Program-made: the position numbers and the translations under genes
The notes under the pieces: model-generated
The model's input: only the letters and a program-made list of their open reading frames with translations
Told to the model about the DNA's origin: nothing
The model's database searches: none
IMG/VR virus record: IMGVR_UViG_3300025237_000001
Coordinates: 1-64,000 of that record
Strand: one strand, 5' to 3'
DNA from: a virus
Length of the DNA stretch: 64,000 nucleotides
In this document: piece after piece, positions 18,732 to 25,223 of the stretch
How the letters are laid out: each line of letters starts with the position of its first letter
Position numbering within the stretch: position 1 is the stretch's first letter

Positions 18732-21218
18732 TTAATTGGTTACTTTAGTAGTAATCCCATCCTTAGTATTGTAGGATAGTTTTATAGTTCCACCCTCTTT
18801 TAGTTTACCATCCATGACGGCATCCGTGATAGGGTCTTCAACATATTTCTGTATCGCTCTCTTAAGAGGTCTAGCACCATATTCTTTATGGTAACCTTCT
18901 TTAGCAATGAAATCCATCGCTGATTTATTTACGACCATCTTGTAATTTAATTCAAGGATGCGTTCTTTAACCTCTTTGATTTCATTCTTGATAATTACGT
19001 TGAGATTTTCTTGTGTTAAAGGGTTAAAAATGATAGTTTCATCAATTCTATTCAAGAATTCTGGTTTGAATTTATCCTTAAGTGCTTTTTGTATAATACT
19101 TTTAGCCCTTTCCTCTTCATCAATAGAGGTGTTGTTACTTCCGTATCCAATACCTCTACCAAATTGTGATAATTCTTTCACACCTATGTTAGAAGTCATA
19201 ATAATTAAAGCGTTTTTAAAGTCCACTTTTCTATCATTACTATCAGTTAAATGACCTTCATCTAATACTTGAAGTAAAAGGTTGAAAACATCTGGATGTG
19301 CCTTTTCAATTTCATCAAAAAGAATAACTGAATAAGGGTTTCTTCGTACAGCCTCAGTGAGTTTACCACCTTCTCCGTAACCGACATAACCTGGAGGTGC
19401 TCCCACCAATTTAGACATCGAGAATTTCTCCATGTATTCGGACATATCCATTCTTATTAGTGAATCATCATTATCAAATACGTGCTTAGCAAGTGTTTTA
19501 GTAACGAATGTTTTACCTACACCAGTTGGTCCAAGGAATATAAAGGACCCAATTGGTTTATTACTATTTCTAATCCCTAATCTACTTCTTCTAATTGCTT
19601 TAGAGATTTGTTTAACCGCTTCGTCTTGACCAATAATTTCCTTTTTAAGTTCTGCTTCAAGATTTTTAAGTGAGTTATTCTCTGTTGTTGTAACTTTGGT
19701 TAACGGAATACCAGTCATAGTTGAAATAACCTTCTCAACAATCTCTTCTGTAATTATAGTTTTGTCTTTAAGATTACTATCTTCCCATTTCTCCATCATT
19801 TCTTCCAACTTAGCTTCAAATTCTTTACGTTTATCACGCATCATTGCCGCATCTTCGAAATCTTGTTTGTTTATGATTTCCTTCATTTGGTCTTTAAGAG
19901 CTTGAATTTTAATTTTCAGTTCTTTGATTTGCACTGGTAACTTGATATCAATATTTGTTGATGCACCAGCTTCATCTAGGATGTCAATGGCTTTGTCAGG
20001 CATCGCTCTATCAGAGATGTAACGATTTGCTAACTTAACAATGTATTCAACTACGTTATCGTCATAACTTACATTATGATATTTCTCGTAGTTTACTTTA
20101 ATATTTTTAAGAATTGTAACGGTTTCGTCTAAACTTGGTTCTTTTATCAATACTTGTTGGAAACGTCTAGTTAATGCACCATCGGTTTCAATATTTTCTC
20201 TAAATTCATCAAGAGTAGTTGCTCCAATTATTTGTATCTCACCTCTCGCTAATGCTGGTTTGAATATATTGGATGCGTCTAATGAACCTGATGCGTTACC
20301 CGCACCTACAAGTGTATGTAGTTCATCGATAAACAGAATTACATCTTGATTATCTTTTAATTCACTTAAGATAACTTTCATACGCTCTTCAAATTGTCCT
20401 CTGTACTTTGTTCCAGCTACGATTGAAGCTAAATCCAATGAGAATATTCTTTTTCCTAATAGAGGTCTAGGTGCGTCACCAGTATTTATCAAAGTTGCTA
20501 GACCTTCAATGATTGAAGTCTTTCCAACTCCTGGTTCTCCAATCAGTACTGGGTTGTTTTTCTTACGTCTCGATAGGATTGCAGTAACTCGTCTTATTTC
20601 ATCTTCACGACCTACTACTGGGTCGATTTTACCTTCCAATGCTGCTTTTGAGATATCTCTACAAAAACCGTCTAAGGCTGGTGTTTTAGAAGCGTTAGCT
20701 TTAGAAGTAGCACGCTTTTTAGGTTTTAATGGTTGTGTACTTTCATATTCATCTTCGGGTGTCATATCCATATCGTTATCGTTTTCTGCCATAAGCTTTG
20801 TTTTAAATATTTTATAGTTTATTTTTAGTTCTACGAGCATTTTTTGTGCCACACATTTGGTTTTTAAGATACCTAACATGATATGTGCTTCACTAATAGT
20901 ATCATCTCCCATTCCACTACATTCTTTTTGCATTTCTTCAATTACAAATTTAGTGTCGGAACTTGGTAAAATCTCTTCTTTAGTGAGGTACGCTCTATTA
21001 TTGTTGATTATATTTTGTGTTAAGTGAGTTGTCAATTTTTCAAATAAAGCATCTACATCAAAGTTCAAGTTTCGTAGAATTTTAACGATACTGTTGTGTT
21101 CGTGCATAATGATTGACAGTAATATATGTTCAGGTCTGAACTTATTGTCTTCATAGTCTTTTGCTTGGTAAATTGCTTTTTTCATCAGCTCACTGGCTGT
21201 CGGTGTCAATTCCATCAT
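18732..21218 (-). CDS. clpC: ClpC-type AAA+ chaperone / protease ATPase
   Basis: Clp N-domain, two AAA+ modules (GEPGVGKT, GPTGVGKT), UVR-type M-domain; also an IG(Y/F)-like loop region RGIGYG. Confidence 0.95.
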   Translation of the reverse strand: MMELTPTASELMKKAIYQAKDYEDNKFRPEHILLSIIMHEHNSIVKILRNLNFDVDALFEKLTTHLTQNIINNNRAYLTKEEILPSSDTKFVIEEMQKECSGMGDDTISEAHIMLGILKTKCVAQKMLVELKINYKIFKTKLMAENDNDMDMTPEDEYESTQPLKPKKRATSKANASKTPALDGFCRDISKAALEGKIDPVVGREDEIRRVTAILSRRKKNNPVLIGEPGVGKTSIIEGLATLINTGDAPRPLLGKRIFSLDLASIVAGTKYRGQFEERMKVILSELKDNQDVILFIDELHTLVGAGNASGSLDASNIFKPALARGEIQIIGATTLDEFRENIETDGALTRRFQQVLIKEPSLDETVTILKNIKVNYEKYHNVSYDDNVVEYIVKLANRYISDRAMPDKAIDILDEAGASTNIDIKLPVQIKELKIKIQALKDQMKEIINKQDFEDAAMMRDKRKEFEAKLEEMMEKWEDSNLKDKTIITEEIVEKVISTMTGIPLTKVTTTENNSLKNLEAELKKEIIGQDEAVKQISKAIRRSRLGIRNSNKPIGSFIFLGPTGVGKTFVTKTLAKHVFDNDDSLIRMDMSEYMEKFSMSKLVGAPPGYVGYGEGGKLTEAVRRNPYSVILFDEIEKAHPDVFNLLLQVLDEGHLTDSNDRKVDFKNALIIMTSNIGVKELSQFGRGIGYGSNNTSIDEEERAKSIIQKALKDKFKPEFLNRIDETIIFNPLTQENLNVIIKNEIKEVKERILELNYKMVVNKSAMDFIAKEGYHKEYGARPLKRAIQKYVEDPITDAVMDGKLKEGGTIKLSYNTKDGITTKVTN

Positions 21219-21331: not shown

Positions 21332-21763
21332 ATGATTTTAAAAAGAACTGTAAATGAGGGAGTTGTAAAAGGACTTTACGACTCAACAAACATTTTGGCA
21401 TCAGAGTATGACCAAACAACTAATAACTTAACCGTAGTATTTAAAAATGGTGGGAAATATAAGTATAATGGAGTGATTATGAAAGACTTCACTAGATTTG
21501 AATTAGCTGATAGCCAAGGAAAAATATTAAATACTCATATTAAAAATAATTATGAGTTTGAAGCTTTGGGTAAAATTGATACTAAAGACATACTTGAAAG
21601 TGTTGCGCTTTTAGAAAAAGATTCGCTTCAAGAATTTGCTGAGGTTGTTAGAGCTAAGGCATTAGACCTAATTGCTGAGGTTGATTCTAACTTAGAGTTA
21701 TCTGATAAAAGAATTGACGAACTAGAATCTGCACTTGCGGTTTACAAAAGTAAAAGAAAATAA
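21332..21763 (+). CDS. KTSC-domain protein
   Basis: STNI.ASEYD.....L.V.FKNG..Y.Y.GV....F......S.GK..N..IK KTSC signature, plus a C-terminal helix. Confidence 0.85.
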   Translation: MILKRTVNEGVVKGLYDSTNILASEYDQTTNNLTVVFKNGGKYKYNGVIMKDFTRFELADSQGKILNTHIKNNYEFEALGKIDTKDILESVALLEKDSLQEFAEVVRAKALDLIAEVDSNLELSDKRIDELESALAVYKSKRK

Positions 21764-22899
21764 TGGGAACAAGAAAAGTTTTTTTGGAGTATATCTGGCT
21801 TGACGGCTCGGAACCCCAACAATTAAGAAGTAAGACAAAAGTAGTGGAAGAAATTCCAACTACTGTACATACTTTATCTAACTGGTCATTTGATGGTTCA
21901 TCAACAGACCAAGCAAAAGCTGGCAAGGGCGAAAATACAGATTGTATGCTCAAGCCAGTTTTTATGGTTAATGACCCCTTTAGAGGTCATGACCATAAGT
22001 TAGTTTTATGTGAAGTGTTTAATCCTGATGGAGTTACACCACATAAAACTAATCATAGGTTTGCATTAAATGAATTTACACGGAAGCCTAAAATAGATAT
22101 TAATGAAAAGATAATAAAATATAAACACTTACCTTGGTTTGGTTGGGAACAAGAATATACCCTGACTCGTAAGACTAAACGTTGGGAACGTGGTGAAGGA
22201 TTACCTTTAGGTTTTAAAGAACCTGAAGTTGAACGAGTTTTAATTGATGGTGAAAAATTAGCATCAAGGATAAATAATGGTGAACCAAGACCTCAAGGAG
22301 ATTACTATTGTGGTGTGGGTGCTGATAATATTGCTGGACGTTCAATAGCCGAAGAACATTTACGTATTTGTGCTGATATAGGAATTGTTATTTCTGGAAT
22401 CAATGCTGAAGTAATGTTAGGTCAATGGGAATATCAAATAGGACCTGTTACTTCGTTAGGTGGTTCTGACCAATTATGGATGTCTAGATATCTTCTTCAA
22501 CGAATAGCTGAAAGAAAAACTGTTAAAGTTTCTTTACACCCAAAACCTAAAAGTGGTGATTGGAATGGCTCAGGTTGTCATGTTAATGTTTCGACTAAAC
22601 AAACAAGAAAAAAAGGTGGTTTAAAAGTCATTGAAGATTTAATGCCACGTTTAGAAACTTTACATAATGAACATATGGACGTATATGGGTTATCTAACGA
22701 TGAGAGACTAACTGGAGACCATGAAACATCAACGATTCACGACTTTAGTTTTGGATATAGTACTAGAGATACTAGTATTAGAATTCCATTACAATCTAAA
22801 ATTGATGGAAAGGGTTATTTTGAAGATAGAAGACCAGCTTCAAATTGTGACCCGTACTTAGTAACACTTAGAATGCTTAAAACAATATACGATGTCTAA
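21763..22899 (+). CDS. glutamine synthetase type II
   Basis: LEYIWLDG...LRSKT...W.FDGSST.QA...EQEY...YYCGVG...INAEVM.GQWEYQ.G...DWNGSGCH...RLTG.HET...YFEDRRPASN.DPY. Confidence 0.93.
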   Translation: MGTRKVFLEYIWLDGSEPQQLRSKTKVVEEIPTTVHTLSNWSFDGSSTDQAKAGKGENTDCMLKPVFMVNDPFRGHDHKLVLCEVFNPDGVTPHKTNHRFALNEFTRKPKIDINEKIIKYKHLPWFGWEQEYTLTRKTKRWERGEGLPLGFKEPEVERVLIDGEKLASRINNGEPRPQGDYYCGVGADNIAGRSIAEEHLRICADIGIVISGINAEVMLGQWEYQIGPVTSLGGSDQLWMSRYLLQRIAERKTVKVSLHPKPKSGDWNGSGCHVNVSTKQTRKKGGLKVIEDLMPRLETLHNEHMDVYGLSNDERLTGDHETSTIHDFSFGYSTRDTSIRIPLQSKIDGKGYFEDRRPASNCDPYLVTLRMLKTIYDV

Positions 22900-23888: not shown

Positions 23889-25223
23889 ATGAATAATTTA
23901 GACACAACTTACACAGATTTACTTTCAGACATATTAGATAATGGTATTGTTAAGAGTGATAGAACTGGAACAGGTACAACATCTGTATTCGGTAGACAAA
24001 TAAGACATGATATGTCAGAGGGATTTCCTTTGTTAACTACTAAGAAAATGGCTTACAAGTCAATTATAGTAGAACTACTATGGTTTCTTAAAGGAGATAC
24101 CAACATCAAATACTTGGTTGATAACGGTTGTAATATTTGGAACGGTGACGCTTATAAACATTTTAAAACCACCATAAGCTCTCAAATATCTGATGATAAT
24201 CGACTGAAATTATATGATAAAGGGTATTTACAAGTACGTGGTAAAAATGACGTTAACGGTGGTAGTTATAAATTCAGGGTATTGTCTCAAGAAGAATTTA
24301 TTGAGCGAATTAAAAGTGATGAAGAATTCGCTAAGAAGTGGGGTGATTTAGGACCTATATATGGTAAGCAATGGAGAGGATGGGGTGGATATAAAGATGT
24401 TTTCGAATATGTGGATAACGGTAAAGGTACACCAGTAGGTGTTACCAAGTCTTGGGAAGGTATTGACCAAATAGCTAATGTTATAGACCAACTTAGGAAT
24501 AATCCTGATAGTCGTAGAATTATGGTTAACGCATGGAATGTAGCGGAGGTACCTAACATGACTTTACCACCTTGTCATTATGGATTTCAATTGTATACTA
24601 GAAAATTATCTCTAGAAGAAAGGACTGCTATTTGGGATAAAAAATATCTTAAAGATGTTAATCCTGAAGATGCTATGGACCGTATTAATTTCCATAACAT
24701 CCCAGAAAGAGCTATTTCATTAATGTGGAATCAACGTTCAGTTGATACGTTCTTAGGTTTACCATTTAACATAGCTTCTTATGGATTGTTACTTGAGATA
24801 TTAGCTAATGAAGTTGGGATGGTACCAGACCAATTAATAGGTAATCTAGGTGATACCCATCTATATTCAAATCATTTAGACCAAGCTAGAGAACAAATAG
24901 GTGGTGAATTATCTGACAAATCTTTGATGAATTTATACAAAGAACATGATGCTGAAAACTTTGACGCTTATGTAACGTCAAGAAGACTTAAGAAAGAAGC
25001 TATAAATAAGCAAGACTATGAAGTAGCCGCTAAGGAGAGGGACAATGAAAAGGTGGCTAAGACAGAATTAATTAAAATTGACATACCTACATCTGATAGG
25101 TATCCATACCAGTTACCACAGATGAAAATAGCCGATAAACATTTTGAAGATTTAACAATTGAAGATTTTGAATTGATTGGTTATAAATCTCATTCTGCGA
25201 TTAAAGCACCACTATCTAACTAA
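23889..25223 (+). CDS. thyA: thymidylate synthase with three insertions, one containing a UVR motif
   Basis: DRTGTGT, FPLLTTKK, ELLWFL.G, GP.YGKQWR, LPPCH, QRSVD..LG.PFNIASY, GDTHLY.NH. Confidence 0.95.
   Translation: MNNLDTTYTDLLSDILDNGIVKSDRTGTGTTSVFGRQIRHDMSEGFPLLTTKKMAYKSIIVELLWFLKGDTNIKYLVDNGCNIWNGDAYKHFKTTISSQISDDNRLKLYDKGYLQVRGKNDVNGGSYKFRVLSQEEFIERIKSDEEFAKKWGDLGPIYGKQWRGWGGYKDVFEYVDNGKGTPVGVTKSWEGIDQIANVIDQLRNNPDSRRIMVNAWNVAEVPNMTLPPCHYGFQLYTRKLSLEERTAIWDKKYLKDVNPEDAMDRINFHNIPERAISLMWNQRSVDTFLGLPFNIASYGLLLEILANEVGMVPDQLIGNLGDTHLYSNHLDQAREQIGGELSDKSLMNLYKEHDAENFDAYVTSRRLKKEAINKQDYEVAAKERDNEKVAKTELIKIDIPTSDRYPYQLPQMKIADKHFEDLTIEDFELIGYKSHSAIKAPLSN

Follow-up and report, generated by a model that had tools for sequence, protein, structure and literature searches.

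A ClpC M-domain-like hairpin in the thymidylate synthase of a large marine phage that also encodes ClpC

Results

Thymidylate synthase and ClpC in the phage window

The window analysed here comprises the first 64,000 nucleotides of a virus record of 197,358 bp (IMG/VR IMGVR_UViG_3300025237_000001; 32% G+C, CheckV completeness 56%) that represents an AT-rich large marine phage of roughly 200-350 kb. It encodes a thymidylate synthase, ThyA, and, on the opposite strand, a ClpC unfoldase, and our subject is a predicted helical hairpin that is inserted in the former and resembles the M-domain of the latter. The features on which the analysis turns are the following.

23889..25223, plus strand: thyA, thymidylate synthase of 444 residues (Pfam PF00303, E 9.7e-93; solved ThyAs, E 5e-70)
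24909..25103, plus strand: lineage-specific ThyA insert, residues 341-405 (65 residues), seen as a gap in alignments to solved ThyAs and in a survey of ~180 related ThyAs
24951..25073, plus strand: predicted ClpC M-domain-like (UVR-type) helix-turn-helix hairpin, ThyA residues 355-395 (AlphaFold2, hhalign and PDB sequence search)
24993..25043, plus strand: the 17-residue ThyA segment singled out by an earlier first-pass annotation, residues 369-385 (Pfam UVR, 16 bits; E 0.01 for the insert alone, E 0.003 genome-wide)
18732..21218, minus strand: clpC, full-length class I Clp/Hsp100 unfoldase of 828 residues (Pfam domains; conserved neighbour of thyA in relatives)
19761..19937, minus strand: ClpC M-domain coiled coil, about residues 428-486 (Pfam UVR, 18.3-18.5 bits; tip triad F454/R461/D462)
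19833..19883, minus strand: the 17-residue ClpC segment matching ThyA, residues 446-462, within the M-domain

The enzyme is a clear member of the thymidylate synthase family, scoring 310.6 bits against PF00303, for which the curated cut-off is 24.3. Its catalytic motifs are intact (PPCH with the catalytic cysteine C229, DSRR with R209/R210, the arginines for the dUMP phosphate) and invariant in our alignments A3, A6 and A9, and on these grounds it looks like an active thymidylate synthase. Relative to the solved ThyAs it carries a small-domain insert, which aligns with those of 4dq1 and 1lca, an insert of ~37 residues after the catalytic strand and a 65-residue segment between residues 340 and 406. 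The last of these is the extra segment near the C-terminus that the first-pass annotation had described and that comparison with the solved ThyAs bears out; the range given for it then, 24901-25090, lies in the right region and is slightly off from the boundaries of both the insert and the hairpin listed above.

The 65-residue insert is placed between a helix ending in EQIG and a conserved R-x-P-[FY]-x-L-P strand. The loop after this helix is an insertion hot spot. About one third of ~180 related phage ThyAs (survey loci L004-L083, L096-L161 and L173-L252) carry some other insert there, 35-75 residues long. The ends of these inserts are conserved (E-L-T-x-E-E-R ... P-x-R-T-R-E-P) and their middles vary widely, one example being of a P-F-G-G-G type; more than 20 unrelated insert types occur at the site. 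Inspection of roughly 180 further related phage ThyAs did not reveal the hairpin motif in any.

The ~37-residue insert (ThyA residues 239-275, 24603-24713) follows the catalytic PPCH strand, starts with L-S-L-E-E-R and contains two predicted helices. It is common to the whole clade of phage ThyAs, with LR756502 and LR745206 as megaphage examples, and none of the solved ThyAs has it.

The ThyA insert resembles the ClpC M-domain

ThyA residues 369-385 and ClpC residues 446-462 are identical at 12 of 17 positions, which confirms the earlier count on recomputation. The underlying DNA is identical at 32 of 51 nucleotides and the codons agree for just 4 of the 12 shared residues, so that the likeness lies at the protein level, as the first-pass annotation had also held. 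Recent DNA copying between clpC and thyA within this genome is ruled out by the same nucleotide and codon counts.

The UVR core motif, [YF]-E-x-A-A-x-x-R-D on a helix-turn-helix hairpin, is present in ThyA at Y377-D385. In a six-frame scan of the 197-kb record the Pfam UVR model (PF02151) matched at two sites and no others: one is the ClpC M-domain, with 18.5 bits and E 4.9e-4, the second the ThyA insert, with 16 bits and E 0.003. The ThyA score, 12.7 bits for the whole protein and 16 bits for the insert alone, is below the 21.5-bit gathering cut-off and thus does not establish membership in the family; the phage’s genuine ClpC M-domain, at 18.3-18.5 bits, likewise falls under it.

Profile comparison gives a much stronger match. 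With hhalign, five ThyA insert rows aligned to ten phage ClpC M-domains with a probability of 95.9% (E 5.8e-9), and removal of both window rows left this almost unchanged (95.2%, E 2.8e-8). With 18 ThyA insert rows the probability was 97.2% and the E value 4.7e-11 over 36 columns; across the comparisons the matched region spanned 32-36 columns. Controls consisting of 30 column-shuffled M-domains and one reversed M-domain scored 6.5-16.5, against the 43-56 observed.

A search of the insert profile (A8) against 177,635 distinct PDB sequences points in the same direction. The best 14 matches are all ClpC or ClpC1 M-domains, among them Mycobacterium tuberculosis ClpC1 (E 4e-4), a Staphylococcus aureus ClpC M-domain fragment (E 0.005) and Bacillus subtilis ClpC (E 0.007). 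The UVR region of McsA is a lower match (E 0.78), after two ribosomal proteins and calmodulin, and UvrB and UvrC are absent from the matches up to E 10. The ThyA element is therefore, by its sequence profile, ClpC-M-domain-like rather than UvrB/C-like or generically UVR. The earlier description of it as a UVR motif holds in that it is of UVR type and is made more precise by its assignment to the ClpC M-domain type; it does not hold at the level of the Pfam cut-off.

Could a helix rich in lysine and glutamate, encoded by an AT-rich genome, resemble a UVR motif by chance? Every Pfam UVR score is under the gathering cut-off, and the single-pair BLASTP match between the ThyA insert and ClpC (E 9e-5) comes, by our estimate, to an E value near 1 after correction for an all-against-all comparison of the window. 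Against this stand the restriction of UVR matches to two sites in the six frames of 197 kb, the profile-profile match at E 5e-11 with its clean controls, the specificity of the PDB matches for ClpC M-domains and the retention of the motif in 18 diverged ThyAs, described below. Chance resemblance is effectively refuted by the controlled profile match, the PDB matches and this conservation, and we regard it as very improbable indeed.

The likeness does not extend to domain architecture. By Pfam, ThyA contains no AAA+ domain, whereas an M-domain in the architectural sense is inserted in an AAA-1 module, so that the hairpin resembles the tip of an M-domain and is not itself an M-domain. Nor does ThyA belong to a known Clp adaptor family (MecA, McsB, ClpS or Gp53-like); its only Pfam matches are PF00303 and the weak one to UVR.

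Predicted structure of the hairpin

The AlphaFold2 model of full-length ThyA has a predicted local distance difference test (pLDDT) score of 83.7, with the insert region helical at a pLDDT of 59-85. When the insert is modelled alone, helices are predicted at positions 9-19, 21-39 and 43-61 of the insert and the hairpin reaches a pLDDT of 88-93. The predicted hairpin turns at K374-D376, and its tip, K374-Q375-D376/Y377, is where it would be expected from the M-domain comparison. Foldseek comparison of the isolated insert with the PDB gave nothing at E 0.001, and ClpC and UvrB appear only among weak matches to helical hairpins; the only ClpC-related rows superpose at 0.8-0.9 Å over 41-42 columns, a fit that is not significant, the fold being too small to be informative. 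Prediction of a complex between ClpC residues 190-500 and full-length ThyA (alignments A7 and A6) gave scores of 0.14 and 0.00 (mark, 0.32), and we count this result neither way.

A family of hairpin-bearing ThyAs

Relatives were sought with an exhaustive HMMER search over 1.84 billion representatives and with a word-indexed search using the C-terminal third of ThyA. At least 18 distinct metagenomic ThyAs, with overall identity down to 46%, possess a homologous insert and the same core (alignment A9), and the hairpin is found in at least four insert architectures. One group contains P0154, the ThyA of TARA scaffold L173 that is 76% identical to that of the window, together with P0155-P0159, P0004 and P0003. 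In a second group (P0161, P0164 and P0163) the hairpin has a very canonical M-domain-like sequence, and a third (P0175, P0203, P0207, P0254 and duplicates) has a shorter architecture. The fourth is represented by P0040, from a complete 339.6-kb phage. A word-indexed search with ThyA region 336-410 alone had returned no matches, a false negative of the word prefilter given that the later searches recovered many relatives.

Some of the hairpin ThyAs already bear both PF02151 and PF00303 in precomputed database annotation. The first-pass annotation knew of no ThyA-UVR fusion, a view that these annotations and the metagenomic family overturn. A tblastn search of 50,697 deposited phage genomes, cultured or metagenomic, with the hairpin gave one marginal match (E 0.9) and nothing stronger. 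In the literature searched, no paper brings thymidylate synthase and a UVR domain together, and none of relevance connects ThyA, ClpC and phages. The hairpin is a known module in a new host protein, and the ThyA architecture is previously undescribed.

The tip of the hairpin is strongly conserved among the 18 inserts. R384 is invariant (18/18), K368 and A380 are each kept in 17, position 377 is Tyr in 16 and Phe in 2, position 381 is Ala or Gly in 16, E387 is kept in 16/18 and D385 in 15/18. By motif spacing, Y377, R384 and D385 of ThyA are the counterparts of F436, R443 and D444 of S. aureus ClpC (PMC5699869), and the tip triad that characterizes an M-domain is thus present.

Compared with its counterpart in L173, the insert of the window is 52% identical and free of indels, with a ratio of non-synonymous to synonymous substitution rates (dN/dS) of about 0.40, while the rest of ThyA is 86% identical with a dN/dS of 0.145; both ratios are approximate because dS is near saturation. 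The hairpin evolves under relaxed but real constraint.

Hairpin-bearing phages encode full-length ClpC

The 828-residue product of clpC has the attributes of the ClpC class, namely Clp_N, two AAA+ modules, a short UVR-type M-domain, a D2-small domain and a ClpP-loop variant (Pfam: Clp_N, AAA, AAA_lid_9, AAA_2, ClpB_D2-small), and a gene for ClpP lies in the same record at 178,291-178,818 (G000). Full-length ClpC is encoded by all eight hairpin-bearing phages with readable context, so that the co-occurrence of hairpin-bearing ThyA with ClpC, which the first-pass annotation had suggested checking, is borne out across related phages. In seven of the eight (the window phage, L173, L088/L174, L094, L361/L362, L363 and G020) clpC adjoins thyA. 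In the eighth, the complete genome G001, full-length ClpC is encoded about 100 kb from thyA. The corresponding ThyAs are P0004 for L088 and L174, P0048 for L094, P0163 for L361 and L362, P0156 for L363, P0161 for G020 and P0040 for G001. Outside the count of eight stand L087, where the contig breaks off 400 bp upstream of thyA, the P0207 group and several short contigs.

Among 44 relatives whose ThyA is without the hairpin, 21 encode some ClpC-like gene and three of these encode the full-length form (G004, G007 and G037), the others being mostly of a roughly 680-residue form without the N-domain. We consider the co-occurrence of the hairpin with full-length ClpC suggestive.

ClpC-like ATPases of 660-720 residues that have no Clp_N and keep the M-domain motif Y-E-E-A-A-x-L-R-D occur in many large phages related through their ThyA (G002, G003, G005, G014, G015, G022, G024, G027-G029, G032, G033, G035, G038, W02 and W03). 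The full-length form is found in only one lineage of these phages, which includes that of the window. The presumed ClpP-docking tripeptide, at about residue 690 of ClpC, is I-G-Y in the window and L088 and V-G-F in most of the related phage ClpCs.

Discussion

A candidate docking element for ClpC

The M-domain tip is the switch that holds ClpC in its inactive resting state, and it is also the site at which MecA acts. MecA contacts both the N-domain and the M-domain of ClpC. The first-pass annotation had named McsA together with MecA as adaptors that engage ClpC through the M-domain; McsB is the adaptor, however, and McsA its activator. For MecA the statement stands, as F436 of S. aureus ClpC is required for MecA binding to the M-domain (PMC5699869). 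F436, R443 and D444 make the head-to-head contacts between M-domains, and mutating them activates ClpC (PMC5699869).

The presence of the equivalent triad on the ThyA hairpin, in phages that encode ClpC, suggests that the hairpin may be a ClpC docking element, a reading that we favour tentatively and that the first-pass annotation had proposed along with possible adaptor-free degradation or activation of resting ClpC. A permissive surface loop of ThyA would have acquired a 41-residue hairpin homologous to the ClpC M-domain tip or closely mimicking it, and the hypervariable insertion site of thyA would probably have captured the M-domain coding sequence from the clpC beside it. Such a capture would fit both the adjacency of the genes and the similarity of the profiles, although 36 columns are too few for a tree. 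Y377, R384 and D385 could then make an M-domain-type head-to-head contact with ClpC M-domains, two such tips being presented by the ThyA dimer. Binding of the hairpin might compete with the M-domain/M-domain contacts of resting ClpC or with adaptors of the MecA type, and as a result the phage ClpCP would be switched on or ThyA itself would be brought to ClpCP for timed turnover.

The more specific proposal, that a metabolic enzyme has been made a regulator of a protease by means of the protease’s own control element, with the ThyA dimer capping the M-domains of phage ClpC and so opening the resting state or competing with adaptors, seems to us quite unlikely. Were it correct, ClpCP activity would be coupled to the amount of the enzyme that makes deoxythymidine monophosphate, or ThyA would be removed on schedule, and a new form of adaptor-free control of an AAA+ protease would have arisen in evolution and spread through large phages of marine and fresh waters.

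Alternative explanations

Several observations weigh against a role in docking to ClpC. The residues of the hairpin that are conserved are also those on which the integrity of a UVR hairpin depends, so that conservation alone does not prove an external partner, and D385 is replaced by Ala in three of the 18 members (P0048, P0175 and P0203), the first of which additionally lacks the second Ala of the A-A pair. Most of the hairpin phages belong to one syntenic lineage and only about two or three independent events are represented; with one lineage and two or three outliers, the co-occurrence with ClpC is confounded by shared ancestry and is not statistically independent evidence. In the P0207 group no ClpC is encoded within 10 kb of thyA, the range readable on a contig of 167 kb. 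Conversely, clpC adjoins thyA in G004, G037 and L205, where ThyA carries an unrelated insert, and in G007, where it carries none, which indicates that ClpC does not need the hairpin. The matrix of identities between ThyA hairpins and ClpC M-domains reveals no preference for the phage’s own ClpC and no covariation: over 32 columns the hairpin of the window shares 14 residues with its own ClpC, 15 with that of L173 and 12 with that of L088, and the own pair of L088 shares only 7. The special match to the phage’s own ClpC that gave rise to the first-pass annotation is thus limited to this phage and its nearest relative and does not characterize the family. Finally, the presence and absence of the insert are scattered on the ThyA tree, with 25 changes, no fewer than with shuffled labels, on a tree in which 31 of 84 branches are open and which is therefore poorly resolved for counting origins of the hairpin; the site looks as if inserts had been gained, lost or recombined often.

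Together with the more than 20 unrelated insert types at the same hot spot, this scatter makes it plausible that the hairpin is a tolerated passenger or serves purely as structural decoration, an M-domain fragment that probably came from the clpC nearby, persists as a harmless or mildly stabilizing addition and has no partner. The insert’s non-synonymous evolution, about four times faster than that of the core, fits such an origin, as do the close relatives that manage without the hairpin beside an adjacent clpC, the absence of own-ClpC specificity and the identity of the conserved residues with those that define the fold. However, the motif is nearly invariant across 18 ThyAs that span identities down to 46% and at least four insert architectures, the comparison with L173 shows a dN/dS of about 0.4 without a single indel, and a neutral insert at so fluid a site should tend to decay or give way to another. 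We therefore consider a passenger somewhat unlikely. If the hairpin is only that, it would still be an example of a short regulatory module copied into a permissive loop.

An unlikely explanation, in our estimation, is that the hairpin docks to something other than the M-domain of phage ClpC. It might serve as a decoy for an adaptor of the MecA or McsB type, bind a host ClpC, ClpE, ClpL, UvrB or UvrC, or pair through UVR-UVR contacts with another ThyA dimer or an enzyme of a complex that synthesizes deoxynucleoside triphosphates. The UVR hairpins of UvrB and UvrC pair with one another, and 1qoj_A is among the weak Foldseek matches of the insert, as the UVR region of McsA is among the weak PDB matches of its profile. 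F436 mediates the binding of MecA to the M-domain tip (PMC5699869), host ClpC is a known target of phages, an example being SPO1 Gp53 (PMC6873191), and the absence of covariation with the phage’s own ClpC would fit a conserved external partner. Yet the insert profile matches ClpC M-domains and not UvrB or UvrC, no further UVR-type protein is encoded in the available 197 kb (a record about 56% complete), and Pfam (E up to 0.01) detects no MecA or McsB homologue in nine neighbouring open reading frames (ORFs), the rest of the record not having been searched.

Relation to known systems

The hairpin as a candidate ClpC docking element can be set beside several known systems. It shares with the ClpC M-domains of S. 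aureus and B. subtilis and that of M. tuberculosis ClpC1 a profile match of ~36 columns, the form of a helical hairpin, an aromatic residue at the tip and an R-D pair 7/8 residues later. It differs from them in lying in a loop of a metabolic enzyme and not in the AAA-1 module of an unfoldase, with no ATPase context. With the UVR domains at the C-terminus of UvrB and in UvrC (PF02151) it has in common the core motif, the helical hairpin and the weak Pfam match of 12.7-16 bits; it is set apart from them by its position under the gathering cut-off, by a profile that finds the ClpC type and by having no link to nucleotide excision repair.

In chloroplasts, UVR-domain proteins are enriched among the interactors of CLPC1, and the adaptor CLPF carries a UVR domain (PMC8889267). 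Like the phage ThyA, CLPF, EXE1/2 and UVR2-4 are proteins with a UVR motif that are not unfoldases, and they have been trapped in association with CLPC1, a chaperone of the ClpC type (PMC8889267). However, they belong to the plastids of eukaryotes and their further domains are different ones (YccV, DUF151); no thymidylate synthase is among them, and contact through the UVR motif is not shown in that work (PMC8889267). SPO1 Gp53, an adaptor-like phage protein that binds B. subtilis ClpC and stimulates its ATPase activity, provides a precedent for the manipulation of ClpCP by a phage (PMC6873191). It is a small dedicated protein acting on the host ClpC, whereas the present candidate forms part of an enzyme, as an insert, in a phage that has its own ClpC and ClpP. 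Large surface insertions are tolerated by ThyA elsewhere, as seen in the small domains of the Lactobacillus casei and S. aureus enzymes and in phage T4 Td, but these lie at other places in the fold and have no likeness to UVR or M-domains.

The hairpin places a ClpC-type tip, with its three contact residues conserved, on an unrelated enzyme encoded beside phage clpC. It bears on how AAA+ proteases can be controlled in trans and on the question of what large phages gain from a ClpC and a ClpP of their own. The ThyA architecture and its hypervariable site should also be useful for annotation and for thinking about the capture of domains from neighbouring genes.

Gene neighbourhood and further observations

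Between clpC and thyA lie a KTSC-domain gene, a glutamine-synthetase-like gene and two small ORFs without assigned function.

21332..21763, plus strand: KTSC-domain gene (Pfam PF13619, E 1.8e-14)

The glutamine-synthetase-like gene (21763-22899) encodes 378 residues, with matches to Gln-synt_N and Gln-synt_C that are both weak. The order clpC (minus), KTSC (plus), thyA (plus), terminase and portal, with other genes before and after thyA, is repeated in L088, L174, L094, L173, L361, L362 and L363.

In L094, which has the same clpC-thyA neighbourhood as the window, thyA is split (L094:8977-11086) into an N-terminal part of 102 residues and a C-terminal part of 361 residues by an ORF for a homing endonuclease of NUMOD/HNH type that overlaps the start of the C-terminal part. 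The unrelated phage L091, a complete 339-kb genome with a short M-domain-like ThyA insert, has a glutathionylspermidine-synthase-like gene directly before thyA and, at L091:1353-2396, an IS605 OrfB/TnpB (Cas12f-like) gene.

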